64,000 nt of DNA from a virus, in IMG/VR virus record IMGVR_UViG_3300023180_000018; one strand, written 5' to 3'. The notes under the pieces were generated by a model. That model worked only from the letters and a program-made list of their open reading frames with translations. It had not been told where the DNA came from and did not search any database. The first letter of the stretch is position 1, and the number at the start of each line of letters is the position of its first letter. A program made the translations under genes and the position numbers. Positions 350-55,086 of this stretch are shown one piece after another.

Positions 350-1993
350 TTATTTTCTTAAAAACTGATCAAAATCACTGACAGCATAAATAACTTCTTC
401 AATATATTCATCTCGCCCATCATCAATTATGCCGAATGGCACCAATTCATTCATAATTTGTTCGTTATTCATATCTCTAAGATGATTTATAGTATTTATA
501 TCGGTTAATTCTTTAAAATATTGTTGATTACTTAACCACGCAAATAAACCTAGGCACATTGTTAAGTCGTCATGATTCCCTGGTTCGGCCTCATAACTAC
601 TTCCTTTTTTACTAAAAGTAGATAGTTCTTTAATTGTTTCAAAATCACTTATAATTAATTGGTTTTGTTCTATTAATAATTTCAATAAAGAACACGCTAA
701 AGATTTAACAGCTTTTGTTGTTCTTACACCTTTATCCGCTTGCCCAGAAAATCCTGCAGATAATCTTTTACCACTTCTACCCATGTTTTCCGTAAATAAC
801 ATATTTTCATATTCTAAATCCTCGAATAAAGTTACCGATACTTGTTCACCTATATCATTAATTTCTACTAATACTTGTGCATCATTATAGTGTTTTGCTA
901 ATTGATAGATAATATCAGTAAAATCTCTTGGAGTAATCATATTATCTCTAAAAATACATACTTGCAAATATGGCATTTTAGTCACATCAATAATTTGGAA
1001 TGCTGAATAATCTAGTCCTTTTCCACGAGAAACATCGACAGTCATAACATAAGATCTTTGCGCTTTTGGAGATTGATACATTTTAACCCCGTGCGATTCA
1101 TGAATAGGATCTTTATATACTAATTCTTTAAGTTTCCATCCAGCAATTAATGTTCCAGAACTACCTAAAAATTCACACTCCATTTCTTGCGCAAATTTTT
1201 CTTCATCAAAATCCATAGCAGCAAGAGTTTCTTTTCGCCAGGCTGCGTCTCTTCCAGGAACATCATTCCATTTAACTTCAATAAATTTATATCCATTCCT
1301 TCCATCTTTTGCACCTTCACACGTTTTATAAAAATGATTTAAACCATTTGGTGTAGATGTTAATAATATCTTTGTAGTATCACCAGAAGAAATTGTTGGA
1401 AATACAGAAGCAAAAAATTCATCCCAATTTTCAACAAATGCTGTTTCGTCTATATAAAGGAAAGATACAGATTTACCACGAATAGCTGAAGAAGATGTAG
1501 CTGCAGCTATAATTTTAGAACCATTTTCAAATTCAACAGTTCCTTTATTCCATTCAACTACACCTTGTTGCATCCATTTTGGTAATGCTTCATACGCAAC
1601 TTTAATTCTTTCTAAAATTTCTCTCGCAGCATCACCCTTATTTGCTAATAAAGCGACCGTTTTATGCTCATTAAATAAAATATAATGCAATATTAAACAA
1701 ACAGCAGTAGTAGTTTTACCTGCCTGACGAGATGTAACTACTACTGTTCTTCTATTATTACTAGTAGTATCAATAATTTCACTTTGATAAGGATATAAAT
1801 CTATAGGTATTAATCCACGATCAACATGAACAATTTTGATGTATGTTTGTGAAAAATGAATTGGATCAGCAGCACATTTTAAAAATTCTTGGACCATTTC
1901 TTCGGTCCAATTAATGTTTACGCCTTTTCTTTTAAGATTTACATTTCCTAAATAGGATTTATAATCATCAATATCTTCAATTGTTTGTTGCAT
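350..1993 (-). CDS. gp17: Terminase large subunit
   Basis: YLGNVNLKR N-terminus, Walker A SRQAGKTT, Walker B LYIDETAF, TSTPNGLNHFY, C-terminal nuclease DVSRGKGLDYSAF and HDDL. Confidence 0.98.
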   Translation of the reverse strand: MQQTIEDIDDYKSYLGNVNLKRKGVNINWTEEMVQEFLKCAADPIHFSQTYIKIVHVDRGLIPIDLYPYQSEIIDTTSNNRRTVVVTSRQAGKTTTAVCLILHYILFNEHKTVALLANKGDAAREILERIKVAYEALPKWMQQGVVEWNKGTVEFENGSKIIAAATSSSAIRGKSVSFLYIDETAFVENWDEFFASVFPTISSGDTTKILLTSTPNGLNHFYKTCEGAKDGRNGYKFIEVKWNDVPGRDAAWRKETLAAMDFDEEKFAQEMECEFLGSSGTLIAGWKLKELVYKDPIHESHGVKMYQSPKAQRSYVMTVDVSRGKGLDYSAFQIIDVTKMPYLQVCIFRDNMITPRDFTDIIYQLAKHYNDAQVLVEINDIGEQVSVTLFEDLEYENMLFTENMGRSGKRLSAGFSGQADKGVRTTKAVKSLACSLLKLLIEQNQLIISDFETIKELSTFSKKGSSYEAEPGNHDDLTMCLGLFAWLSNQQYFKELTDINTINHLRDMNNEQIMNELVPFGIIDDGRDEYIEEVIYAVSDFDQFLRK

Positions 1994-2387
1994 CGTCTTT
2001 ATTCATTAATTTTAGTAAATCGCTGGTGCTTCCAACAAATAAATTATTATTAATTGTTCCTGCTATTTCTTCTGGTTTTAATAAATCTTTTTTCTTTTTT
2101 TGTATTTCTAATAAATCTTTATTTACATCAACCAAAGTTTTAATCATTTGAGCTAAAACTTCATATGAACGAGGGTGTTGAGATTGATCTGCAATAGACA
2201 TTAACTCATCCATTGCGCCATGTCCTTTCTCTATAATATCATATAAGTTTTGTCTAACGTATTTTAAATCTTGTTCTGCTTCATGATCTGTTTGAATAGA
2301 TGGTTTATAAGCTGTAGGTAATTGCGTATCATTTTCTATTTCAATAGGATTCATATTTAAAACATCACTAATTATATCTTTACTCAC
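1977..2387 (-). CDS. gp16: Terminase small subunit
   Basis: DLKYVRQNLYDIIEKG...HPRSYEVL...NNNLFVGSTSDL motifs of T4-like gp16; directly upstream of gp17. Confidence 0.93.
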   Translation of the reverse strand: MSKDIISDVLNMNPIEIENDTQLPTAYKPSIQTDHEAEQDLKYVRQNLYDIIEKGHGAMDELMSIADQSQHPRSYEVLAQMIKTLVDVNKDLLEIQKKKKDLLKPEEIAGTINNNLFVGSTSDLLKLMNKDDATNN

Positions 2388-3256
2388 TATTCAATGTCCT
2401 TAGGGTCTTGTATATCTACAATAAATCCATAATTGTCTTCCGATGAAATGTTATTGGCAGAAATACTTAATGCAGAATTAGAAGTTGGTTCACCGTTTGC
2501 AGTTAATCCTGGGCTGACATCAACAGAAGCTATTGCATTAACTAAAGATGAATCAATATCATTATATAATGATGAATCATATAATTCTGTATTTGCAACG
2601 TTAATAATTCCAGAATTTTTGATAGGACCAAAGAATTGTGCTTTCATAACAAAATTTAAAGTCCAAATAAGAGATCTTCTACTGTCATAATCTCCTTCAT
2701 ATACATCATCTTGAGAAACATCAGTTAAAACTAAAGGAACATCTAAAACAATATCAGGATCATTTATTAATTTAACCGTAGTATTCCATTCTGGAGTAAA
2801 ATATGGTAAAATTTGTTCAACAATTGCAGTGCCATCTTCTGTATTCTTACAAAATACAGAAAGTGAAAAATTTATATCGTATGGAACCGGATTGTATGTA
2901 TATTTTCTGCTAGTATCATCACTTGTAACATCTTTAACAATAAACCTATTAATAGTAGATAATTTTCTTTCTGGCGCATAATTCATTCCTACAATTTCAA
3001 ATCCTAAGCGAGGTAAAACTATAGCAACAGGCCTAGTCATAGGATCTTCATCACTTTGTGCACCAGTATAACCAGTTATTCCGCCAGTAATTCTTGATAA
3101 AAATTTATCACGGGGTCCATATGCTATAGGTATTTTTATAGATTGAATTACTTTACCATTATTATCTTTTCGATTAATCCAAAGATCATTAAATAGTGTG
3201 CCAAATAGAATAACATACTTTTTTATCATTTCGTGGTAAAAAGTTTGGCCAAACAT
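2387..3256 (-). CDS. gp15: Tail sheath stabilizer / tail terminator
   Basis: MFGQTFYHEMIKKYVILFGTLFND, IPIAYGP, QILPYFTPEW; synteny. Confidence 0.95.
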   Translation of the reverse strand: MFGQTFYHEMIKKYVILFGTLFNDLWINRKDNNGKVIQSIKIPIAYGPRDKFLSRITGGITGYTGAQSDEDPMTRPVAIVLPRLGFEIVGMNYAPERKLSTINRFIVKDVTSDDTSRKYTYNPVPYDINFSLSVFCKNTEDGTAIVEQILPYFTPEWNTTVKLINDPDIVLDVPLVLTDVSQDDVYEGDYDSRRSLIWTLNFVMKAQFFGPIKNSGIINVANTELYDSSLYNDIDSSLVNAIASVDVSPGLTANGEPTSNSALSISANNISSEDNYGFIVDIQDPKDIE

Positions 3257-3984
3257 TAAATATTACCTTCAGAAAATGGATTTGTTTCACTAAAATCAAT
3301 AATATTATCACCATCTGTTTCTAAAGTTACATTATCTGCAAAAGGATCAGTTGAAATAAATGATGTATTTGCGTTTTGTATTCTTCCCGTATCAACATCA
3401 ATTATAATATCACCATTTGCGTATAAATCACCCCGATCAAGAATTCCAGCATCTAATGAATATTGTTTTTGAATTGAATCTATTGCATCTAATCCTGTAC
3501 TCAATTCTTCATTACTATATTCAAATAATTCACAACGAATATCATATGTTTGTAACCCACCCATTTGATAAAATACTGCCTCATGCTCTACAAATTTAAC
3601 TTGATAAACACGATTTGTTAATGGTAAATAAATTAAATCGCCTTCTCTTGGTCTACTTTGTATTTCAATAGCACCAATTTCATTATTAAAAACCCTTTGT
3701 GCAATAGAGAACGTAATTTCATCTCTAATTTGAACACCAAATTTAGAAAGAAAATCACCCTCTCCTTCGAATCCTTCAATATTCTTAATATACATTTCAA
3801 CCAAATACGTATTAACATATCTAGAAATTCTATCTTCGTTAAATGTAGAATCAATTGCTACTAATTGCCGCGGAGAATAATAAACGTCGTGGCCATACAT
3901 TTTAATAGACTCGATAATTAAATCTTCTATTAAATTTTTTTCTGCATAACTATCAAAGTTATTAAAAAATACATTAGTAGCCAT
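3256..3984 (-). CDS. gp14: Neck protein
   Basis: LIIESIKMYGHDVYY, FEGEGDFLSKFG, RPREGDLIY, FSETNPF; synteny. Confidence 0.95.
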   Translation of the reverse strand: MATNVFFNNFDSYAEKNLIEDLIIESIKMYGHDVYYSPRQLVAIDSTFNEDRISRYVNTYLVEMYIKNIEGFEGEGDFLSKFGVQIRDEITFSIAQRVFNNEIGAIEIQSRPREGDLIYLPLTNRVYQVKFVEHEAVFYQMGGLQTYDIRCELFEYSNEELSTGLDAIDSIQKQYSLDAGILDRGDLYANGDIIIDVDTGRIQNANTSFISTDPFADNVTLETDGDNIIDFSETNPFSEGNI

Positions 3985-3990
3985 AACTGG

Positions 3991-4018
3991 TTGACATTTC
4001 CTGTTTTTTGCGTATAAT
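3991..4018 (+). promoter_or_regulatory. Consensus sigma70-type promoter, antisense to gp13
   Basis: TTGACA (3991-3996), 16 bp spacer, TATAAT (4013-4018) in the gp13/gp14 gap. Confidence 0.6.
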
Positions 4019-4038
4019 AGCTATTGAGCTAATAATAA

Positions 4039-4782
4039 TTATCCTCTCATATCCATTACTGGTAATGAGTAGTTATTAATCATTTGTTCTTCTAGTTTAG
4101 TAATTTCTGCTTGAGCATCATCGTACAGTTTAGCGCCATTAAAGGTTATACCGCCAGGCAATTGCATCCCTTCAAATTTTGTTAAATTAGAACCCCATTG
4201 TCTTTTAATTAATTGCGTAGTATAATGCTTAAGCCATCTGTCATTCCAAACATCTGTGTATGTATCTGGATCTACGATTTCGTAAGCTTCTACTAAAACA
4301 TATTTGTCTAATTCTAAAGCAGCCTCGCCTTTATCAATGTGTAATATATTTCTATGTCTATTATAACGTATAGGAGTTCTACCTACTAAAATTTCTTGAA
4401 CTAACGCAAGATGTTCCATTGACATGTAATAATCGATTAATCCAACATTAACTAATGTATATAAATCATTTAAAGCAATTTGATATCGTATATTAAATAA
4501 ATCACCAGCACTAGTTGCAGGATCACTCATTTCAAATATTTTTACAACTCCCATTATATTTTCCGGAAGAGTAATAGATTTATCATCAATGTTTTGCTGA
4601 GTTATTTGATGCTTATAATAAACTTTTGATGTTCCATCGAAATGATAATCATAGTAAAATCTTAAAGCTTCATCAATTCTATCATCTACTTGATCATCAT
4701 CTACATTAATTTCTATTACTGGCTTACCTAAAGCTCTTAAGCAATATTCTTTAAATTCAGATCTTGTAGTTGGATTAGCCAT
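4039..4782 (-). CDS. gp13: Neck protein (short form)
   Basis: EFKEYCLRALGKPVIEINVDDDQVDDRIDEAL...KRQWGSNLTKF.GMQLPGGITFNG. Confidence 0.95.
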   Translation of the reverse strand: MANPTTRSEFKEYCLRALGKPVIEINVDDDQVDDRIDEALRFYYDYHFDGTSKVYYKHQITQQNIDDKSITLPENIMGVVKIFEMSDPATSAGDLFNIRYQIALNDLYTLVNVGLIDYYMSMEHLALVQEILVGRTPIRYNRHRNILHIDKGEAALELDKYVLVEAYEIVDPDTYTDVWNDRWLKHYTTQLIKRQWGSNLTKFEGMQLPGGITFNGAKLYDDAQAEITKLEEQMINNYSLPVMDMRG

Positions 4783-5611: not shown

Positions 5612-6385
5612 TTAACCTGCGCTATTTCTAGATTTTAAACATCTACCATTGTTAATTGGTAAATATTTTTCATTTATATCCATTTTTAATTTTAGAATCA
5701 TATCTGATTCTTTTTTTGCAATTTGTTCAATGTTTCTAATATATTTATAATTCAAATGATCTGTGTACTCTAATAAACGATTAAAATTATATGTCCATGC
5801 TTCTGCAACAGTACATCTTCCAGTTTTTACAAATTTTCTATAATCATGACATACAGCACTTAATCCCTTTACGCCATAATTTAAACAGTTCTTAGCATCA
5901 AACGCATGATCTATTAAAGGATCTTCTTTATGTAAATAGTTTATTGGCATATCTGTTACTGCCACTTTACTTAAAAATCCGGAATCTTGTTCAGGAATAT
6001 AATTAAATAAGAATGGATTTAATATAAAAAATGATAAATCTGCTATTCCAGGATTTGCTTTTATTCTTAAATTATTATAATAACTTGCAAGATTTGAATC
6101 TTTTGAAAAAGTATATCTTTTATTTTTATAAAACGCAAAATTCGAATTGCAAATAGAATTATATTGTAAATTAATTAAATTTAGATCGCATATAATTCCA
6201 CTGGCCAAGGCAATAGTTGGTCTTGTACAATTTTTTAATACAGTATTAACTTTTTTATTATTTTCACATTGAATAATTGACCATTTCCAATCTGGAGTAT
6301 TTTTTTTCAAAGAATTAATAGTTAAAGGTAAAAGATCATTATCATTATTTAATATGATAACATCAAATTTTTGAATGTTGCTCAT
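5612..6385 (-). CDS. Hypothetical protein, possible glycosyltransferase-related fold
   Basis: Likely start MSNIQKF at 6385, overlapping the upstream gene; beta-alpha start VIIL...LTINSLKKN resembles GT-A enzymes but no clear DxD. Confidence 0.45.
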   Translation of the reverse strand: MSNIQKFDVIILNNDNDLLPLTINSLKKNTPDWKWSIIQCENNKKVNTVLKNCTRPTIALASGIICDLNLINLQYNSICNSNFAFYKNKRYTFSKDSNLASYYNNLRIKANPGIADLSFFILNPFLFNYIPEQDSGFLSKVAVTDMPINYLHKEDPLIDHAFDAKNCLNYGVKGLSAVCHDYRKFVKTGRCTVAEAWTYNFNRLLEYTDHLNYKYIRNIEQIAKKESDMILKLKMDINEKYLPINNGRCLKSRNSAG

Positions 6386-7274
6386 GTTCAAATTTATCCT
6401 CAAAATATTTAAAATAATTATAAATTCTTTCTTCTTGATTTTTACTATCAACTGAAATCAATCCGTTAAAATTACAAGAAAATATTGATTTCAAATCTTG
6501 TTGTATTTCTTTTTTCATTTCGTTTGGATTTTTTTTATCAAAATATATATGCTTATAAAAATTGGAATAAGTATATGATCCACGTTCTTTTCCAACGTAT
6601 GCTGTATCTAACCCTTTAATAAAGGCGATAAGGCCCATTTCAGTATTTTCACAAAATCCAACTTTATTACAATTAGCAAGAATTTCATGTCCGGACAATT
6701 CTTTATTGATAATGTTATTTTTTCCAAATTTATACTGTAGATGAGATAACATAGATTCAGGTGTTATAGGATGACACTTTATTTTAGCATTTTCACTTTT
6801 TATTAATTGCGTTATTTTATCTTCATCTACAATTTTATTGTAAATATTGTTGCCGGGTAAAAATATAACAAAATCGTTATAATCTTTATTTCGCGTAGGT
6901 CTCAATGAATATTTGTCGACATGTTTCTCATATAAAATGTTGAAAATATTTTCACCATCTTCATTAATTTTTGTCTTTTTACTTTCTTTAATTATTTCAG
7001 AATTTCTTAATCTAGATGAACATCTAATATATACAAATTTACCTAAACAATCTGTATAAAAATATCCAGAAATTTTATTATCATTTCGAGAGGAATAAGA
7101 AACATCATATTCTAATTTCGTTTTTCTTTCTTCAATTTCTTTAAATGGTAATTTTTCTCGTAATTTTGTTAATTCAACGTCATTACTAACAGATCTTAAC
7201 GCGGTACCAGATTTAAAAAAATGTGCAGATATATTTCCTAAATTGTCATCACTCGCTAGAAATTTTAGTGGCAT
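6363..7274 (-). CDS. Capsule-synthesis (KpsS/KpsC-like) glycosyltransferase-like protein
   Basis: FVIFLP...KIKCHP...HEILANCNKV...NTEMGLIAFIKG resembles the KxHP...LL...V...NSTxGLEAL..G pattern of KpsS/KpsC-type GT-B domains. Confidence 0.55.
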   Translation of the reverse strand: MPLKFLASDDNLGNISAHFFKSGTALRSVSNDVELTKLREKLPFKEIEERKTKLEYDVSYSSRNDNKISGYFYTDCLGKFVYIRCSSRLRNSEIIKESKKTKINEDGENIFNILYEKHVDKYSLRPTRNKDYNDFVIFLPGNNIYNKIVDEDKITQLIKSENAKIKCHPITPESMLSHLQYKFGKNNIINKELSGHEILANCNKVGFCENTEMGLIAFIKGLDTAYVGKERGSYTYSNFYKHIYFDKKNPNEMKKEIQQDLKSIFSCNFNGLISVDSKNQEERIYNYFKYFEDKFEHEQHSKI

Positions 7275-7430: not shown

Positions 7431-10232
7431 TTATAGTGTCCAAGTATTACCATCCCAAGTCTGAGGAATTAATGTATCTAACGTTGTATCGTATACTGTT
7501 AACGTAGTTCTATTAGTATCTATATCAGTATTATAACCAGTATCAAATACCGTTAACGTAGCTCTAGTAGTAATTCTGTCTGTATCATATCCAGTATCAA
7601 ACGCTGTTAACGTAGTTCTAGTAGTATCTATATCAGTATTATAACCAGTATCAAATGCGGTCAGCGTAGTTCTAGTAGTATCTATATCAGTATTATAACC
7701 AGTATCAAACGCTGTTAATGTAACTCTATCAGTGTCTCTATCAGTTGATACTGCGGTATTGAATGCCGATTCATACGCTGTTACAGTAGTTCTATCCGTA
7801 TTTTTGCCAGTATCAAATGCAGTTAACGTAGTTCTAGTAGTATCAATTGTCGTATTTTGACCAGTATCAAATGCCGTTAACGTAGTTCTATCCGTATTTT
7901 TGCCAGTATCAAATACCGTTAACGTAGTTCTAGTAGTAGCAATATTAGTACCAAATACTGAATCATACGCTGTTACAGTAGTTCTATTGGTTGCTATTGC
8001 AGTATTAAATGCTGATTCATACGCTGTTACAGTTTGTCTATCAGTATTATAACCAGTATCAAATACCGTTAACGTAGTTCTACTAGTTCCTATTGCCGTA
8101 TTGAATCCTGATTCATACGCTGTTACAGTAGTTCTATCCGTATTTTGTCCAGTCTCAAACACTGTTAATGTTTCTATGTTTGTTTCTACTGCAGTATTAA
8201 ACGCTGATTCATACGCTGTTACAGTAGTTCTATCCGTATTTTTTCCAGTCTCAAACACTGTTAATGTAATTACATTGGTTTCTACTGCGGTATTAAACGC
8301 TGAATCGTATGCTGTAATCGTATCTCTATTCGTATTTCTTAGAGTCTCAAATGCAGTTAACGTAGTTCTAGTAGTATCTTTGGTCGTATTGGCGCCAGTA
8401 TCAAATACCGTTAGTGTAGTTTTAGTAGTACTAATATTAGTACCAAATCCTGATTCATATGCTGTAACTGTATTTCTATTAGTTCCTACTGCGGTATTAA
8501 ATGATGATTCATATGCTGTAACTGTATTTCTATTAGTTGATACTGCGGTATTAAATGCTGATTCATACGCGGTAACTGTAGCTTTATTAGTTTCTACTGC
8601 GGTATTGAATGACGAATCATACGCCGTAACAGTTGATCTATTAGTTGAGACAGAGGATGTGGCCCTATTGATCTGAAATGACCCGCCACCAAATTTATCA
8701 GATTGAATTAACGGTCCTTTGTAATAAGTAAATCCATCAGGATGCGCATAGCCGCTCAGGATCAGTGGGCCACTGTATTTTTGTACCGATGCCCAGATAA
8801 CAGAGGTGGTCGCAGTACCTGATTGGGCCCAAACATACGAGCCGGCGACTATCGTATTTGGTCCTTGCGCGCCTGTAGTATTAAATACCGTCAATGTAGC
8901 TCTAGTAGTAGCAATATTAGTATTTTGTCCAGTCTCAAACACTGTTAATGTAGATCTAGTAGTACTAATATTAGTATTCAAACCCGTCTCAAACGCTGTA
9001 AGTGTAGTTTTAGTAGTATCTTTGGTCGTATTGGCGCCAGTATCAAATACCGTTAGTGTAGTTCTAGTAGTATTGATATTAGTATTAAACGCTGATTCAT
9101 ACGCGGTAACTGTAGCTCTATTAGTTCCTACTGCGGTATTAAATGCCGATTCATATGCTGTAATCGTATCTTTATTCGTATCTCTTAGAGTCTCAAACGC
9201 TGTAAGTGTAGTTCTAGTAGTAGCAATATTAGTATCTTGACCAGTCTCAAACACCGTTAATGTTTCTATGTTTGTTTCTACTGCAGTATTAAACGCTGTA
9301 ATAGTATTTTTAGTAGTATCTTTGGTCGTATTTTGTCCAGTCTCAAACACTGTTAATGTAATTATATTGGTTTCTACTGCGGTATTGAATGCTGTAATAG
9401 TATTTTTAGTAGTATCAATATTAGTATCTTTACCAGTATCAAATGCTGTAATCGTATCTTTATTGGTTGCTACTGCAGTGTTGAATGCTGTAATAGTAGA
9501 TTTAGTAGTATCAATTGTCGTATCTTGACCAGTATTAAACACCGTTAGTGTAGTTTTAGTAGTAGCAATATTAGTATTAAACGCTGAATCGTATGCTGTA
9601 ATCGTATTTTTGTTGGTTTCTACTGCAGTGTTGAATGCTGTAATCGTATTTCTGTTGGTTTCTATTGCAGTATTGAATGCCGATTCATATGCTGTAATCG
9701 TATCACGATTAGTTTCTACTGCAGTATTAAACGCTGTAACCGTATCTCTAGTAGTATCAATTGTCGTATCTTGACCAGTATCAAACACCGTATTAAAAGC
9801 AGTAATCGTATCACGATTAGTTTCTACTGCAGTATTGAATGCTGAAACAAAAGCAGTAACCGTATTACGATTAGTTTCTACTGCAGTATTGAATGCTGAA
9901 ACAAAAGCAGTAACCGTATTACGATTAGTTTCTACTGCAGTATCAAACGCGGTAATAAATGCAGTTACTGTAGCTTTATTGGTTGCTACTGCGGTATTAA
10001 ATGCTGATACGAAAGCAGTAAGAGTAGTACGATTCGTATTGAATGTAGTAAGGAATAATGTATCAATTGTAGCATTATAAAAATCACCTAAAGAAATAGC
10101 GCCAGTAGGTTTAGCTGGATCTGGAAATTGTCGTACATAATTAATGTTTAGACTGATACTACTATTGCTAGTATTACCCATCTCGACATTAATGTCAGAC
10201 ATTGATATTGGGCCTGAACCTTGTAGCGCCAT
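7431..10232 (-). CDS. Thr-rich repeat fibre/adhesin with two mirror-complementary arms and a central tip domain
   Basis: N-terminal MALQGSGPISMSDINVEMG...GAISLGDFYN fibre-attachment-like motif; 22+22 repeat units of 14/18/22 aa flanking an 88-aa central segment. Confidence 0.8.
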   Translation of the reverse strand: MALQGSGPISMSDINVEMGNTSNSSISLNINYVRQFPDPAKPTGAISLGDFYNATIDTLFLTTFNTNRTTLTAFVSAFNTAVATNKATVTAFITAFDTAVETNRNTVTAFVSAFNTAVETNRNTVTAFVSAFNTAVETNRDTITAFNTVFDTGQDTTIDTTRDTVTAFNTAVETNRDTITAYESAFNTAIETNRNTITAFNTAVETNKNTITAYDSAFNTNIATTKTTLTVFNTGQDTTIDTTKSTITAFNTAVATNKDTITAFDTGKDTNIDTTKNTITAFNTAVETNIITLTVFETGQNTTKDTTKNTITAFNTAVETNIETLTVFETGQDTNIATTRTTLTAFETLRDTNKDTITAYESAFNTAVGTNRATVTAYESAFNTNINTTRTTLTVFDTGANTTKDTTKTTLTAFETGLNTNISTTRSTLTVFETGQNTNIATTRATLTVFNTTGAQGPNTIVAGSYVWAQSGTATTSVIWASVQKYSGPLILSGYAHPDGFTYYKGPLIQSDKFGGGSFQINRATSSVSTNRSTVTAYDSSFNTAVETNKATVTAYESAFNTAVSTNRNTVTAYESSFNTAVGTNRNTVTAYESGFGTNISTTKTTLTVFDTGANTTKDTTRTTLTAFETLRNTNRDTITAYDSAFNTAVETNVITLTVFETGKNTDRTTVTAYESAFNTAVETNIETLTVFETGQNTDRTTVTAYESGFNTAIGTSRTTLTVFDTGYNTDRQTVTAYESAFNTAIATNRTTVTAYDSVFGTNIATTRTTLTVFDTGKNTDRTTLTAFDTGQNTTIDTTRTTLTAFDTGKNTDRTTVTAYESAFNTAVSTDRDTDRVTLTAFDTGYNTDIDTTRTTLTAFDTGYNTDIDTTRTTLTAFDTGYDTDRITTRATLTVFDTGYNTDIDTNRTTLTVYDTTLDTLIPQTWDGNTWTL
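7506..8633 (-). repeat. C-terminal repeat arm (22 units, 376 aa, residues 534-909)
   Basis: Units start T[LVI]T[AV][FY]; 42/54/66-bp imperfect tandem repeats. Confidence 0.95.
8898..10025 (-). repeat. N-terminal repeat arm (22 units, 376 aa, residues 70-445)
   Basis: Same unit grammar; unit lengths are the exact reverse of the other arm. Confidence 0.95.
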
Positions 10233-10251: not shown

Positions 10252-10791
10252 TTAACTATTTATAGTTTTAAGTTCATCTATTTGTTTTTGTTGTTCTTTG
10301 ACAACTTCAATGAGCAAAGCTACTATTCTGTCATATTTTACGGCTAATAATCCATTTTCTCTTTCTGCTACAAGTTCAGGTAAAACATTTTGTAATTCTT
10401 GTGCAATAACTCCTACATCTGCTTTTCTAATATTATAATCATCAACTCCGCCTACACTTTCTAAATGGGCATCAGTCCAATCAAAGTTATATCCATTTAA
10501 AGCTTTTACTTTTTCAATAGGATTTTCAATATTTCTTACATTTTCTTTTAACCTAGAATCAGATGAATAAAACGCAGTTATATCGCCTGTTGCAGTAATA
10601 TTGCCAGTAACTGAAATTCCTGCAGAAAAAGTCATCGCACCTGCGGCGGTATCTGCAACATCACTTCTCAAAAAGTTTGCGCCTTCAATTCCATCCACCG
10701 TATCTGCATTTAATCCAGACCCAGGCCCATCATTACCGGCGTGCCAAACAAGTGAACCACCTATAGTTGTTCCTGTTCTAAGTTTCGACAT
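10252..10791 (-). CDS. Short fibre adaptor with intramolecular chaperone (peptidase S74) domain
   Basis: GDITAFYSSDSRLKENV...GVIAQEL...PELV...VKYDRIVALLIEVVKEQQKQI. Confidence 0.88.
   Translation of the reverse strand: MSKLRTGTTIGGSLVWHAGNDGPGSGLNADTVDGIEGANFLRSDVADTAAGAMTFSAGISVTGNITATGDITAFYSSDSRLKENVRNIENPIEKVKALNGYNFDWTDAHLESVGGVDDYNIRKADVGVIAQELQNVLPELVAERENGLLAVKYDRIVALLIEVVKEQQKQIDELKTINS
10257..10264 (-). promoter_or_regulatory. Late promoter TATAAATA for the Thr-repeat gene
   Basis: Exact consensus 25 bp upstream of ATG 10232. Confidence 0.75.
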
Positions 10792-28834: not shown

Positions 28835-31800
28835 CTAAATGCCTCCAATGTTGCCAATATTAATTTTTCCAATTTTAATACCTTTAATTGCAATGTTTTT
28901 TGTAACGTCTACTTTAACTGTCGTAGACGGTGCTTTTGGTTTACTGCCTGAAATTTTAGCAGTAATAGCTGCTATTGCAGGTGGTACGATTCCTTTTGAT
29001 AAATCTACACTTTTAACCACATTCTTAGGTGGAGCTGGTCTTGGCACTTTCCTCTTTTTCTTAGGAAGCGCTGGTGGCTCCGGCGGTGGCGGTGGCGGTA
29101 GATTTGGAACTGGTGGTTTTGGTGGAACCACTATTCTAGCACTGCTAGTTCTAACGCTTCCAGTCTGCTTAAACGTATCAAGAAGATCTCTAGTTCGAGC
29201 ATCCACTTTATGATCTTCACTGAAAATTATTCTTCTTGTAGAAGGCGTCTTAGGCGGCCGCTTAGGAGGTCTAGCCGGCACGACTTTAGGTGGTGCCTTA
29301 GGCGTCTTAGGCGGACTAACTACTTGCACCGTTGCTGCTATTGGAATGTTAATAGGTACAGTAGCACTAAATCCATAACCGCTAATATTTATTGTTTGCG
29401 GTAACACCACTACATCTCCAGTCGTTGTTGGAGCTGTAGAAGGTGGAACAGAAGGTGGCGAAGGCACGGGTGTTGGTGGCTTCGGCGGTGCAGGTGGAGG
29501 AGTTGCTGGAAGAGTCACAGCTACCGGTGGAGGATTAGTTGGAGGTGGAACTTTAACCGGATTTGCTTGATACACCGGATCAATCACTAATTTTGGAGCT
29601 GGATAGCAGAAAACTGCGTTCCAAGCTGTACCAACACCACTTCTAACAGTAATTGTAATTTTATTTCCAAGAGATGAATTATAAGTAAAATCATATGCTC
29701 CTAGATTAGTAACCCAATAGTTATTATCATATACTGCATTTGCCTTCACCGACCCTGCAGGTCCTTCGTCCCAGCGAATCCTTGAGCTCTTACCACCAGG
29801 CTTTTCTCTTTTTTCTGCTGCAGTAAGAGTTCTAAACGCTTTAGTAGAACTAGTGAATAAAGTAGTAGATCCCTGTTTTACTTCAAAACGATCAGCACCG
29901 TTATACACATCAAAAAATATTGTACATATTTGTCCATTGGCTGCACTATTAGATGATAATGTAAAAGTGTATGAATCTGATGGGAAAATTGATTCTTCGC
30001 CATTAAGTCCTGGGCCATTAGTGTTATTTTTATTTTTAATTGCTACACACTTAGTTTCTACCTCTTCTACTACAACAGGTGGAGGAGGAATTACTGGTGG
30101 TGGAACTGGTCTTTCACGTGTCGGTGGAACCACTGGAGGAGGTGGAGGTACTACAATTACAGGTCCATCTGTAGAACTTTTTTGACTAACAATATTAACA
30201 ACATTATATTTAAATTTAATCTTTTTACCATCACTATTTGTTGAACCATTATTAGCAGGCCTAAATGCAACTTCTAAAGGATTCTTAGATGGGCGTAGTC
30301 TATAATCATATATTGAAGAGTTTTGTGCAGGATCGTCTACGTTAGTCATTGATGCATCAATAAATTCATCAGTAAAAAATCCAAATTTATATCTTTCTAA
30401 AGTAGGATCAACTGAACTAGATAATACTTTATTTTTAACTTTTGTTTCATTATCACTTAAACTTACATAATATTCTAAAGCTGCAATCCTGTTTTCTAAG
30501 GACTTAATTTCATCCATACTATATCCAGGAGTTTGCATAGAACTCGCTTCAGTTGTAATAGTATATCTTTCCAATCTTCCGGTTTGAATAGTTTCATTAT
30601 AAACATTAACTGCTAATATCTCAGTCATGTTTTCTGATAATCTTTCAGGAAGAGATGGATATGGAGGAATATCAGCAGTATATAATAAGAACTCATCTGC
30701 CTGTCTAGCTTGTCTTAATTTTTCTCCTTCTAATATATCGAAAGTACCATCAGTATTTAAAATAATACTATCATCTCTAGAATCGTAATAAGTATAACTT
30801 AGTGTTATATCACCTTCTGGTACTGGAAACCTTTTATCTGTAGCAGCAAATCTAGTAGACTCTGTTACTGCACTTGGATTAGTTGGTGCTAATGCAGGAT
30901 CTGTCTGATATGTTGTTGTAGCTGAGGTGATAGGTCTAAAATCTAAAACTTCTCTTAAATCATAATAGTTTCCCTCAGGTCCTGTGATTTCAGGAATTTC
31001 TAATGTATTAATTACAGTTCCATCAGTATCTAATTCTGATAATGTTTTTGTATCATCTAAAGAATATGAAGAAATAGTTTTTAATCCTTCTGAAGACGTT
31101 GTAAAGCAATCTAATTCAATTAAATATACATCACTCGCACCTACTGTCCATTTTGGATTTTTCTTTAAATGTAAATAACCAACGTCTGCGTAATTTGTTT
31201 TATGATTATGATTTACGTAAAAATAATTTGTAATATTTGTATCGCTAGTAGTAGAACCGTCATAAACTGCACGAAGTCTAAAAATATCTGGTATACCTAA
31301 ACACCATGGTCCAGATGTACCTGCAGCATTAGATGAAACATCAATCTTGACATAAACTTTTCTATTAACTGTTTTTGATGTTGGATTAGTTAAAGTTATT
31401 TTTTGATTGAAGATAATTGATGTAGTTCCAACCCCAGATGTTAAACTCTCTCCGAGATCAATATCTAAATTATTTCCATTTACAGTAGCAGTTCTATTAG
31501 CCCTAGTTGAAAACTCAATTGGAACATTTGCAGGTAATATTCTTTCAAAAGTTGCAGATGCATCAATATCTGCTAATGCAGCGGTGGGTTGAAATTTAAA
31601 AGAAGTATTGTTAAGAATACTTCGTACTCGAATAATAGCTGTATTAGAACCACCATCGGTTAATTTAAGATAATCACCATCAGTCAATTCTGAAGTAAAT
31701 TGTGTACTTAATCCAGTCAATGTTCCACTACTATCTGAAGAATACGTTCCAGAAATACTATCTGATATGATTAAATCAGTTTCAGGCGTAATTATAATTT

Positions 31801-44531: not shown

Positions 44532-45887
44532 TTAACCTTGTTCGTCTTCAGAAGTATATTGTTCTATTTCTTGGAATGTCATCGATAATGTAATTGAAAC
44601 GGGTCTTCCATCAATAAAGAAAGCACTCGATCCTTCTGCTGTATAATTAATAGAAATGTTTGTTATAGCAGATCTTTTAAAGTTACCGTAATCATATATT
44701 TCACTACCCTCCCTTATTACATTAGGCTGTACAATATTCGGAAATTTCAAAAATGCTTTACCTGCGCCATTTAATTCAGGAAGAGCGTGTAACTTTATTT
44801 CTTTTAGTATCTGCTGTAATACATCACTTTCATCAAAACTACGTGGAATTAATCTCCATACCCAATTAAATTCTCGTAGGTTCAAACCCTTAAAGAATAA
44901 TGTGGGATGAGGATTAGGTACCATCCCTGCAACACTGGACACTACCCCACCTATTGCTGCATCTTCTGTCATAAATTTTTGTAATGCTAAATACCTTGCT
45001 GCATCTCTTGCTCCACTCGCACCTTCTCCAGCAGTTAACTGACCTGCCTGATTCATAATTTGTCGACCACTATCCATTAATCTTCCTTCAGACATTGATC
45101 TTGTAGCATCCGCATTAATAGAATCCAATACAGCACCTAACGCTGCTTGATCCTGTTGAGAGTGTATAATGTTATGAGCTACTGTCATGTTTTCCGGTAG
45201 AGGCAGATATACCACTATCTGTTCCCCTACACTACCCCCCTTATAAGCGTTCTCTCTCGTATATTCTAAGAACCTTAATTGCAAATAAGCCTGAGTATTC
45301 GTTTCTAAATCCATCGGGAACATTAATCCTCCGAATGGCAGATCTAGTTTACCTGTTATTTTATTTGCTGCCTTTCTTACTTTACTATTCACCGTAGACT
45401 TTAACTTAGCAGGTATACGATTTCCTAGTGACGAAAAATCTTTGGTGTGTTTAGCAACTGCGCGCGTAATATTTTTTGCTGCTTTGTTATGTGCGATTCC
45501 CTTCATGGCTACAGAGGTAATTTTAGAGGCGATCTTTGTGGGTACCCCAGCCCCCTCCAGCTTCGCACCGAGAGCACTACCCACCACTATAGCTGCCTTG
45601 TTCCCGCCTCCTAGTGAAGAGAGTTTCCCTGCGATATCTCCTGTAATTCCGCCTGCTTTTCCTAATGATCCAGCGAGGCCAGAGACACTGCTGATCTGCG
45701 CCTTTTCTAATAAAGAAGATTTTTGTTTAAGCTGACCTGTGAGTGATCCTACATCCTTTAATGCGTTATTAGAAATCTTTCTCTTCGTCTTAGAGAGAAG
45801 AGCCGAAGCAGGACTTGTCACGGCCTGTGTGACTGTATTAACTGTCTTTGATTTAACGCTATCTACTAGGTTATTATGGAATGACAT
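44532..45887 (-). CDS. gp48: Baseplate tail-tube cap with basic low-complexity N-terminal extension
   Basis: VYLPLP, NPHPTLFFKG.NLREFNW.W.LIPRS..E, ITNISINY, SITLSMTFQE. Confidence 0.85.
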   Translation of the reverse strand: MSFHNNLVDSVKSKTVNTVTQAVTSPASALLSKTKRKISNNALKDVGSLTGQLKQKSSLLEKAQISSVSGLAGSLGKAGGITGDIAGKLSSLGGGNKAAIVVGSALGAKLEGAGVPTKIASKITSVAMKGIAHNKAAKNITRAVAKHTKDFSSLGNRIPAKLKSTVNSKVRKAANKITGKLDLPFGGLMFPMDLETNTQAYLQLRFLEYTRENAYKGGSVGEQIVVYLPLPENMTVAHNIIHSQQDQAALGAVLDSINADATRSMSEGRLMDSGRQIMNQAGQLTAGEGASGARDAARYLALQKFMTEDAAIGGVVSSVAGMVPNPHPTLFFKGLNLREFNWVWRLIPRSFDESDVLQQILKEIKLHALPELNGAGKAFLKFPNIVQPNVIREGSEIYDYGNFKRSAITNISINYTAEGSSAFFIDGRPVSITLSMTFQEIEQYTSEDEQG

Positions 45888-52207: not shown

Positions 52208-53110
52208 CTATTCATTAATGAGTTTCTTGAAGAAATCAAGTGACTCATCGTCATCATCTAGAGATTCAGCTGCAGTCGAAGGGGCAGGCTTAGATTCAGC
52301 AGTGGGTGGAGTCCATGCTGGTTCATCTTCTACCTCTGTTTCTTGTGCCATCGCACTATTAGGGGAGAAGTTAACGCCTAGTACTCGCTGAAGCTTTTCC
52401 TGAAGGAAATCATAGGTCTTGAATTTATCTTCAGAAACAAGTTCCTCGAGAGCATGTTGTGATTGCCAAATCTTTTCCAAGACTTCGTCATCAGCGTGGA
52501 GGACTTCAGGCGAGTCAAATGTAGACTTATCATAATTACGATAGCCTTCCACATTACGAATTCGAAGACGGAAGTTAGCACCTTCCCATAGGTCAAAAGG
52601 ATTCACTGCATCTTCATCTTCAAACTGAGGGTGCATTAAATCATTGAGCTTATCAAAGATTTTTTTGCCGTATTCGTATAGGAATACTTTACCTTCATTT
52701 GCGGGATTACCAGGATCACTGATAACAAAAATGTTTGAGATGTAATGCAAGCGTCGCTTTTGCTTACGCGCTTGATCTTTGTCAGCATCAACACCAGAAT
52801 TCCAAAGTGAGGTATTAAACTCAGATACAGGATCTTGCTGACCAAGAGATGTCAAAGATTTCTCGATGTACCAACCACCTGGTCCTTGGAATCCATGATC
52901 CCAGTAACGAACGAATGGAACAGTTTCATTTTGTGGTGCAGGCAAGAATCGAATGACTGCTGAGCCATTACCAGCTTTATCAACTGTAGGTTTCCAAAAA
53001 CGTTCATCAACACCTCCACCTTGCTGTGGATTGCTGACTTTTTCAGCGGCTTGTGCGAGCTTTTCGAATTGCTCGGCGCGGGACTTTTTCATTTGTGCGA
53101 ATGTATTCAT
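52208..53110 (-). CDS. gp32: Single-stranded DNA-binding protein
   Basis: DERFWKP..DKAGNG.AVIRFLP, HGFQGPGGWYIE, YGKKIFDK, NPFDLWEGANF, acidic tail. Confidence 0.97.
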   Translation of the reverse strand: MNTFAQMKKSRAEQFEKLAQAAEKVSNPQQGGGVDERFWKPTVDKAGNGSAVIRFLPAPQNETVPFVRYWDHGFQGPGGWYIEKSLTSLGQQDPVSEFNTSLWNSGVDADKDQARKQKRRLHYISNIFVISDPGNPANEGKVFLYEYGKKIFDKLNDLMHPQFEDEDAVNPFDLWEGANFRLRIRNVEGYRNYDKSTFDSPEVLHADDEVLEKIWQSQHALEELVSEDKFKTYDFLQEKLQRVLGVNFSPNSAMAQETEVEDEPAWTPPTAESKPAPSTAAESLDDDDESLDFFKKLINE

Positions 53111-53177: not shown

Positions 53178-53206
53178 ATTCTACACCGATTCTCTAAAAA
53201 TGTCAA
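53178..53206 (-). promoter_or_regulatory. sigma70 promoter for gp32 (TTGACA-17-TAGAAT)
   Basis: tgtcaa at 53201-53206 and attcta at 53178-53183 on the + strand. Confidence 0.75.
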
Positions 53207-53765
53207 CCAGTAAAGCATTCATTTTTTTCTTATCGAACTGTAGGAATGGAGCATACTTTAATAGCTTCATCTTCTTACGTGGCCACACGACTGTGTCACT
53301 AATATTGTTTGACCAGTAATCAAATACATTAAGAGTACGATCCAACACAACGAGAGTCTCCGCTGATACTGAGCCACGATTATAGTCGTTCAGTATTTTT
53401 GGATAGTTCCCGTTAGTTACCACTAGGGCGTCATTTAAAGATTCATAATTACTCAATTCGCTTTTTACCATATAGGATAGCGACTCATGTTTTCTTTTTG
53501 CATTTTTATAACGCGTTTCGTGGATTTCATCAAAGATATTACCAACCCATACGTTGTCATCTTCAATAAAATTAGATGCTAAGAACAACTCAAGATCAGG
53601 CTTTTTGCTGAGCCTATAGTAATAGTACTTATCATTCTTAGTTTCAAAAGAAATCTTATTAACCTTAACGCTCCCATTATATTTAAAATAATCATAGGAA
53701 TCGCTTGTAAAATGTAACTTGAGCGCTTGAAATTTCTTATAAGCGTCAAATGGTTCCATAATCAT
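53181..53765 (-). CDS. gp59: Helicase loader
   Basis: ALKLHFT..SYDYFKYNG, VSAETL..L, KYAPFL. Confidence 0.92.
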   Translation of the reverse strand: MIMEPFDAYKKFQALKLHFTSDSYDYFKYNGSVKVNKISFETKNDKYYYYRLSKKPDLELFLASNFIEDDNVWVGNIFDEIHETRYKNAKRKHESLSYMVKSELSNYESLNDALVVTNGNYPKILNDYNRGSVSAETLVVLDRTLNVFDYWSNNISDTVVWPRKKMKLLKYAPFLQFDKKKMNALLVDIFRESV

Positions 53766-54078: not shown

Positions 54079-55086
54079 TTAGGCTGCTTCAGCATACTCA
54101 AGGGCGAGACCCATCGCTTCAATATTGCGATTCTTATTCCCACCAAACCAGAGTGACTGCATGCGAGTATCAGGATTATGACCCATCGTGTGATTAGTCA
54201 TATAAGTGACAGCGTTGTAAGCTGACCACCATGTTCCTTTGCCGAACTCAGCACCAGCCTGAGTTTCGACTACTTCCATTGCATTGATAGCATTTCTTGA
54301 TGCAAGTTTACTATCACCACTCTTGAAGCTAGCCATAAGCTCTTTGAATGACACCTCACCTTTAGCGTTAGATGTTTTTGGAAATACTTTGGTGAAGTAT
54401 TCAAAGAGACTTTCCTGAGTGTACCTTTTCTTAGAAAGGAACTCAGCCACCTCACGGTAATTACCTAGCATTTGAGAAGCTTCAGCCAAGGTTGCTTTGA
54501 CTTTATCTACGTCAAAAGACTTACGATGACTTAGGCTAATGCCTAGGGCTGCTTTCCCTTGCAGCGCCATTGAGATGGTATTGTTGCATACGACTCGAAT
54601 TGGTGTAGTGCGTATGTCAACACCGCGTCCAAACTGGTGAGGATTAGACAAAAGGAGATAGTTGGTCACTTCATCCTTACCGTTGAACAGGGAAAAAGAC
54701 TCGCCGATTCGTGCGAGTCCCCAGATGATACGACCATCTTTTAGAGACCCTGCCGTCTCCATCGTCATATCACCATTCTTGACGTACTCAGAGAAGAACT
54801 CGAAAGCTTCTTCATTTTGGACAGGAATCCAATCTTCTGAGACAATGTCAAGGTAAGCGTTATCATTTGTACGAATCAACGCTTTCTTCTTTGGAGCAGG
54901 AACCATTTGACCATTGAGTTGGAAAAATACATCTTCCTTTTCAACAGTCCAATCTAAGTTTGCCGCTTGCATCATTTCTTTTGGCGACATATTAGAATCA
55001 ACTTTAACACCAAGGCCATGCCAAGGTAGTTCACCAGTATACGCCATTGATGCTTTTCCATTTACAATTTCAAGTTCGTGTGACAT
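54079..55086 (-). CDS. DUF932 family phage/plasmid protein
   Basis: PWHGLG, ANLDWTVEK, VQNEEAFEFF, ETAGSL..GR, TPIRVVCNNT, GTWWSAYNAVT. Confidence 0.92.
   Translation of the reverse strand: MSHELEIVNGKASMAYTGELPWHGLGVKVDSNMSPKEMMQAANLDWTVEKEDVFFQLNGQMVPAPKKKALIRTNDNAYLDIVSEDWIPVQNEEAFEFFSEYVKNGDMTMETAGSLKDGRIIWGLARIGESFSLFNGKDEVTNYLLLSNPHQFGRGVDIRTTPIRVVCNNTISMALQGKAALGISLSHRKSFDVDKVKATLAEASQMLGNYREVAEFLSKKRYTQESLFEYFTKVFPKTSNAKGEVSFKELMASFKSGDSKLASRNAINAMEVVETQAGAEFGKGTWWSAYNAVTYMTNHTMGHNPDTRMQSLWFGGNKNRNIEAMGLALEYAEAA

Follow-up and report, generated by a model that had tools for sequence, protein, structure and literature searches.

The subject of this study is the fibre gene P0001, located in a 64,000-nt window of the IMG/VR virus record IMGVR_UViG_3300023180_000018, and in particular the short central domain (the tip) that separates the two long repeat arms of its product. 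We propose that the product of the central segment is the distal head of a virion fibre folded back on itself, a reading that we hold tentatively, at somewhat less than an even chance. A first-pass annotation of the DNA had drawn attention to the tip as a candidate exchangeable receptor-binding module; the mirrored architecture of the entire fibre is more remarkable than the tip that it carries. The complete record is a 106-kb IMG/VR virus contig, ~60% complete according to CheckV, and its source is an uncultured T4-like phage, of which the nearest isolate by gp13 is the Stenotrophomonas phage DLP6 (63% identity). P0001 is regarded as a late protein and virion fibre: it is situated in the late structural module, adjoins a fibre gene with an S74 domain and lies upstream of gp13/14/15. 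The parts of the gene are, in the order of the encoded chain:

7431..10232, minus strand: fibre gene P0001, 933 aa, a listed open reading frame (ORF) that contains the tip
10026..10232, minus strand: N-terminal anchor, aa 1-69, with the motif SGxISxSDxNVExG (phrog_26817 match, E=3.9e-5)
8898..10025, minus strand: N-arm, aa 70-445, 22 units, each 14, 18 or 22 aa long, from anchor cutting
8634..8897, minus strand: inter-anchor segment, aa 446-533, 88 aa, 46.2% GC
8661..8873, minus strand: tip domain proper, aa 454-524 (GAQGPNT...FQINRA), with a GC fraction of 0.493 and a GC fraction at third codon positions (GC3) of 0.437
8745..8855, minus strand: GC3-rich core of the tip, aa 460-496, GC3 0.57 vs 0.185 elsewhere in the gene
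8709..8735, minus strand: conserved apex motif GFTYYKGPL, aa 500-508, shared by the family
7506..8633, minus strand: C-arm, aa 534-909, 22 units with lengths in the exact reverse of the N-arm, from anchor cutting
7434..7505, minus strand: C-terminal tail, aa 910-933 (...IPQTWDGNTWTL), with a WDGxxWT motif

The repeat units were defined by cutting P0001 at every T[LVI]T[AV][FY] anchor. Each arm then consists of 22 units and 376 aa, and the unit lengths of the N-arm run 18, 18, 18, 18, 22, 14, 18, 14, 18, 18, 14, 18, 14, 18, 14, 18, 14, 18, 18, 18, 18, 18. The chance that a given multiset of this kind would be arranged as an exact length palindrome is 1/[22!/(15!·6!·1!)], i.e., 1 in 1,193,808. 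The mirror symmetry extends to the type of unit, since all 22 mirrored pairs (22/22) are complementary: A is matched by B, a14 by b14, and self-types by themselves. Units of the AFNTAVETN type face units of the FDTGxNTxIDTT type, short a-type units face short b-type units, and three self-type units face their own kind. The palindromic lengths and the complementary mirrored types together argue for antiparallel pairing of the arms with the central domain at the far end, and these sequence patterns strongly imply that the chain folds back and places the tip distally. The first-pass annotation had located the tip at the apex of a hairpin, exactly on the symmetry axis, and this placement is borne out: 8634-8897 corresponds precisely to the 88 residues between the last anchor of the N-arm and the first anchor of the C-arm, flanked on either side by 376 aa in 22 units, the unit lengths being identical read forwards or backwards.

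The arms are probably α-helical, because their units of 14, 18 and 22 residues correspond to 4, 5 and 6 helical turns, hydrophobicity in both arms repeats predominantly every 3.57 residues, and single-sequence AlphaFold2 (AF2) modelling predicts helices of 129 residues at aa 325-453 and aa 526-654, with predicted local distance difference test (pLDDT) values of about 63-87. The helix of the N-arm has pLDDT of ~63-83 over most of its length (block means), dropping towards the tip, and that of the C-arm has pLDDT of about 70-87. If helical, the arms would make a stalk of ~56 nm.

The tip differs from the arms in composition. A hand count in the first-pass annotation of 112/230 (48.7%) GC for 8651-8880 is exact, and the background is 34.3% for the window and 34.6% and 34.9% for the two arms. 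The figure of about 33% given for the adjacent 60 bp of repeat is correct on one side (33.3%) and too low on the other (38.3%). Within aa 446-533, a split unit (TLTVFNTT ... ATSSVSTNRS) brackets the tip domain, whose 71 residues include 10 aromatic residues and 11 Gly and form five or six short hydrophobic stretches. The lone His of the printed P0001 sequence is also found in the tip (AHPDG), and none is present in the arms. This make-up of aromatics, Gly and hydrophobic stretches suggests a small β domain of a kind that is often sugar-binding.

Relatives of the fibre were found by position rather than by direct similarity. The whole gene has no DNA match in the phage collection and only a weak Thr-repeat match to a baseplate protein of DLP6, and scans of IMG/VR and the JGI metagenomes gave no close relatives of the gene. 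PF23786 baseplate proteins with Thr-rich repeats, which appeared in the whole-protein search, were taken as repeat-level similarity and not as orthologues. Distant same-position relatives were located via gp13 and the phrog_26179 neighbour, the latter giving a null result as a single query and working as an alignment. In most of 36 IMG/VR loci (L082-L117), among those with enough upstream sequence, the phrog_26179 homologue has a Thr-rich ORF (126 to 1319 aa) as its immediate upstream neighbour. This conserved pairing suggests that the 303-aa phrog_26179 protein acts on or with the fibre; a Pfam search of it returned no glycosyltransferase. The same-position Thr-rich set includes L031/L086 (1202 aa), L052/L108 (1299 aa), L101, L109, L112, L113, L082 (335 aa, with P0017 of 333 aa) and L090/L096 (126-128 aa), with the apex at the midpoint.

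The members of this set are built from different combinations of parts. The apex is a central globular insert of ~230 aa in L031, and a turn of ~20 aa (YYKGxP) in L052, L101, L109, L112 and L113. L082 and P0017 combine short arms with a domain of ~85 aa that is very rich in aromatics, and L090 and L096 consist of an anchor and a mini-hairpin. Two unrelated types of N-terminal anchor are present: an SGxISxS type, found in P0001, L031, L090, the armless L038 and L005, and an unannotated ORF of DLP6, and an NDNGTLR type, found in L052, L101 and L082. The N-terminus of P0001 is 45% identical to that of L038 over 47 aa (tblastn, E=6e-7), L038 and L005 being short globular proteins at the same position. 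At the other end, the C-terminal tail of P0001 (QTWDGNTWTL, 7434-7505) resembles RYWDGSQWTED at the C-terminus of L082/P0017 (L082 6800-6874), where a DUF2510 match is weak (E=0.0024) and under the Pfam cut-off. The arms of L031 and L052 are ~35% identical to those of P0001 (tblastn E ~1e-55) and their apices have no detectable similarity to its tip, in line with the picture in the first-pass annotation of conserved arms bearing unrelated tips. At the level of the family, the claim of an exchangeable module is upheld, as anchor, arm length and apex module combine differently among the relatives, and the tip of P0001 is probably one of several alternative tips in the protein family. P0001 differs from its relatives in that their units are irregular and do not follow its 14/18/22 scheme, their apex modules are different, and a tip match, a weak one, is seen to L082/P0017 alone.

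We also note that P0001 is a mosaic, with the tip type and tail as in L082 and the anchor type as in L031. In DLP6 (KU682439.2), a large unannotated ORF occupies the position equivalent to that of P0001 (L119 15894-18488, continuing as L118 3-1655, into the terminal repeat); its N-terminal motif, SSIALSDVNVEYN, is similar, and what follows are apparent Ig-like repeats in place of Thr-rich arms. An 851-aa ORF in L085 (4240-6795) matches the L031-type C-arm, with a non-homologous N-terminus and no visible apex, and may be the product of a frameshift or of misassembly, or else a truncated variant.

The apex motif provides a link between the tip and the bare turns. The pattern [YFG][YF][KR][GSW] is present exactly once in each of seven proteins, 49-58% of the way along the chain, namely in P0001 (FTYYKGPL, aa 501-508), L082, L101, L108, L109, L112 and L113. 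Over ~50 residues the tip aligns to that of L082 with a local score of 49 vs 29±6 for shuffles (z=3.5, p=0.006), and BLASTP comparison to the L082/P0017 tip gave E=0.014 and 0.004 over GxTYY[KR]...D..G....I.R. Wider searches with the tip returned nothing: phmmer against 1.84 billion representatives gave 0 matches, and a word-indexed search at near lengths found no homologue. A two-sequence profile run against longer proteins recovered P0017 alone, which is a near-copy of L082. The description of the tip as recently acquired is not supported by these results, since no donor or homologue was found among the 1.84 billion representatives, the YYKG motif is kept and the tip aligns weakly to that of L082/P0017. 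The sequences are most economically read as showing a tip elaborated from an ancestral apex turn. This turn would have been extended by ~45 residues upstream and ~15 downstream with the YYKGP turn kept, and the GC3-rich core is located in the extra part upstream of the apex motif.

That some relatives manage with a bare YYKGxP turn implies that the core role of the apex is chain reversal, and this favours an explanation in which the tip is a folding or registration clasp rather than a receptor binder, i.e., a small β domain that would nucleate the turn and align the two arms in register, with rare codons slowing translation at the turn. The foldon plays such a part in the folding of T4 fibritin (PMC3004832). 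However, if a turn of 20 aa suffices, the extra 50 aa of P0001 and the 85-230 aa of L082/L031 look like an added function. The codons, too, count on both sides. The first-pass annotation had pointed to G/C-ending tip codons as atypical, and GCG, GCC, GGC, CTG, TCG and ATC are indeed rare in the genome (2-15% usage), as translational slowing would need, but the stretch that contains the apex motif, aa 497-515, has common, native-like codons (2/19 GC-ending), so that the rare codons do not lie at the turn itself. On balance we think a clasp function in place of receptor binding unlikely.

The codon anomaly of the tip is real. GC3 of aa 454-524 exceeds that of the arms (0.183 and 0.171), and lies at the 99.4th percentile of 71-codon windows taken from 94 ORFs of the whole record (mean 0.185, sd 0.070), which places it above the genome-wide noise within which the first-pass annotation had allowed that it might fall. 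Windows matching the GC3 of the tip occur in 8/94 ORFs. When synonymous codons for the tip residues were redrawn from genome-wide usage, the GC3 expected from the amino acids was 0.195±0.044, the observed value being attained in 0 of 20,000 draws (p<5e-5, z ~5.5), whereas the GC3 of both arms fits the expectation conditioned on amino acids. The amino-acid content therefore does not account for the GC3 of the tip. A scan of the gene with two change points located the core with a log-likelihood ratio of 12.7 vs a maximum of 10.1 among 200 permutations, and the 40-codon GC3 peak of the gene (0.53) is the highest of 12 tail/fibre genes checked, the others reaching 0.25-0.40.

The excess is unevenly spread over the codon classes. 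GC-ending codons make up 26/48 of the 4-fold, 6-fold and Ile codons of the tip vs 3/21 of the 2-fold codons (Fisher p=0.003, post hoc), and the high-GC3 genes of the genome display the opposite pattern (2-fold 0.33-0.40, 4-fold 0.22-0.34). High-expression codon bias was rejected as the cause, as gp32-like high-GC3 genes are enriched in 2-fold codons and the tip is the opposite. The anomaly thus resembles neither ordinary imported high-GC DNA nor expression-linked bias. Few other windows reach the level of the tip: they include stretches of a gp48-like gene (44532-45887), gp32 (52208-53110), the helicase loader (53181-53765) and a phrog_1221 gene (54079-55086), and the excess in these windows is mainly in 2-fold codons. 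A cluster of GC-only palindromes (GCGCGC, GCCGGC and GGGCCC in 45 bp) was set aside because it fits the local GC, 2.7% of windows having as many GC-only hexamers. No RNA element was found in the tip by folding (z=+0.77) or by an Rfam search.

These measurements also bear on whether the tip could be an apex domain of ancient origin and vertical descent whose GC3 peak is a quirk of local context or a small-sample effect. The retention of the family motif and the distant homologue in L082/P0017 indicate that the domain type is old, and the 2-fold codons of the tip are fully native. Apex vs arm GC3 shows a mild excess in L113 (0.46/0.23) and L108 (0.30/0.17), from tiny samples, and values, likewise from small samples, of 0.45/0.46 in L082, 0.24/0.30 in L086 and 0.20/0.19 in L101. 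A quirk of context fits poorly, however, with an excess that no simulation reached given the amino acids, with a peak at the top of the structural genes checked, and with a change-point signal beyond all permutations. Purely vertical descent of the whole tip is accordingly given a low probability. In our preferred reading, the GC3-rich core most likely has a history apart from that of the surrounding gene, another phage having supplied it by insertion or by gene conversion.

The first-pass annotation had further described the tip as possibly hypervariable, with a template copy or a reverse transcriptase to be sought elsewhere in the genome. Targets of diversity-generating retroelements (DGRs) are usually found at the distal ends of fibres. 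The tip, at the distal fibre end, occupies such a site and could be a target of programmed diversification, either as the variable region of a DGR or as an invertible or cassette-switching segment, and a template or reverse transcriptase could sit in the missing part of the record. In the 106 kb at hand (~60% of the genome), neither a reverse transcriptase nor a second copy of the tip is present: RVT_1 had no match at E<=1, although control genomes matched, and 8634-8897 matched only itself. The tip contains 2 Asn codons, has no AAY-rich pattern and matches no Rfam element. The sole inverted repeats belong to a self-palindromic coding motif, TACTAATATTAGTA, which recurs in the arms, and the candidate invertible segment was rejected. 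Programmed diversification of either kind is unlikely, and we give it hardly any weight.

Taken together, the proposed distal head would work as follows. The arms would pair in antiparallel fashion, bringing both chain ends to the virion and the central domain to the far end, where the tip, held off the particle, would most likely serve as a small β-rich head that binds a ligand, probably a glycan of the host surface. Recent swapping, recombination in the flanking repeats, hypervariability and receptor binding, as put forward in the first-pass annotation, are properties that we could only infer. The fullest version of the proposal, in which a horizontally exchanged ligand-binding head is placed mid-chain and caps a very long fibre, perhaps 56 nm, that pairs with itself, we consider doubtful.

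Several observations weigh against the proposal. In the AF2 models the arms are unpacked, VIA rows spanning both helices have a root-mean-square deviation of >100 Å, and one of five models is confident. The Thr/Asn-rich composition of the arms has β-leaning propensities, and the arms of the relatives (TTFYFNTS-type units) do not have a 3.6-residue period; a β ribbon is the alternative to helices for the arms. The tip has no match in Pfam, PHROG, PDB or ESM Atlas, and two single-sequence AF2 runs leave it unfolded, with pLDDT <50. With regard to its origin, AT-ending 2-fold codons are not what simple import from a GC-richer genome would lead one to expect, an L082-like phage was rejected as donor as the codon pattern of L082 is the opposite, the L031 tip has no GC3 shift, and the apex shift is inconsistent across the relatives. 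Foldseek also gave no match, but fold searches are uninformative on the tip since it was modelled at pLDDT <50. The VIA matches were to generic long helices alone (Z <=8.6), which is within the noise for helical models, and were rejected.

By position and design logic, the closest known system is T4 fibritin (wac). Like P0001, its gene lies upstream of gp13 and its product has a long repetitive stalk between an N-terminal part for attachment and a distal domain; fibritin is 53 nm long (PMC3004832), close to the ~56 nm of the P0001 stalk if helical. In T4-like phages the distal domain of fibritin has been exchanged as a module, mostly long ago (PMC3797505), which matches the old, family-level variation of the apex among the relatives of P0001. 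P0001 is not a fibritin by similarity, with no Pfam match at E<=0.01 and no PDB chain at E<=1, the PDB including fibritin structures. The architectures also differ, as fibritin forms a parallel coiled-coil trimer whose special domain is C-terminal, in contrast to the proposed folded-back chain of P0001 with its special domain mid-sequence.

By topology, the needle and head of gp37 may be the closest phage example. The chain of T4 gp37, as reportedly seen by Bartual et al. in 2010 (PDB 2XGF), runs out to the receptor-binding head and returns. As in the proposed reading of P0001, the head is encoded mid-sequence between repeats that pair with each other. The needle of gp37 is, however, an iron-binding HxH β structure formed by ~200 C-terminal residues, whereas the arms of P0001 comprise 376 aa each, are Thr-rich and are predicted to be helical; P0001 has no HxH repeats, gave no tail-fibre PHROG or PDB match and showed no sequence similarity to gp37. 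A working analogy outside virions is offered by the colicins. In colicin Ia, the receptor-binding element is said to be at the apex of a long antiparallel helical hairpin (Wiener et al. 1997, PDB 1CII), and in colicins Ia and E3 the apex element is carried on a two-helix hairpin with the chain ends at the other end. Colicins are bacteriocins rather than virion proteins and are unrelated in sequence, and their hairpins measure 10-16 nm, compared with a possible 56 nm here.

Distal fibre domains make the first contact of a phage, and their modular exchange is a main route by which host range changes. In this family the variable module would be mid-chain, at the turn of a self-pairing stalk, unlike the usual C-terminal tip. 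If this is true, the fibre would represent a means of displaying host-recognition modules that has not previously been described for phages, and the complementary arms would allow the head to be replaced by recombination with the virion attachment undisturbed. Apices of 20, 70, 85 and 230 aa on one scaffold form a natural comparison set for the role of the apex, and the codon anomaly is a concrete feature by which a separate history of half of the tip can be checked.

The whole P0001 protein has no Pfam (E<=0.01) or PHROG family match, and at its N-terminus aa 1-52 match the phrog_26817-type anchor profile at the E value listed above, the function of phrog_26817 being unknown. Two neighbouring genes flank the fibre gene:

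10252..10791, minus strand: 179-aa protein with an S74 intramolecular-chaperone domain, upstream of P0001 (PF13884, E=3.7e-15, and tail-fibre PHROGs)
6363..7274, minus strand: 303-aa partner gene (phrog_26179), downstream of P0001 (PHROG match, E=1.2e-42)

In the order of transcription, the S74 mini-fibre (10252-10791) is followed by P0001, a small ORF, the phrog_26179 protein, two unknown proteins and gp13. The gap from P0001 to gp13 holds three or four genes (56 aa, 303 aa, 279 aa and 270 aa), and the gp13/14-type neck protein, gp15 and the large terminase (gp17) are encoded at 350-4782. The 179-aa S74 protein contains the full chaperone domain, and self-cleavage would leave a mature part of ~75 aa. 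Elsewhere in the window, a 1708-aa structural protein has a Pro/Lys-rich stretch (PPKxPPK-like) near its C-terminus, which coincides with a local GC peak at 29246-29365.

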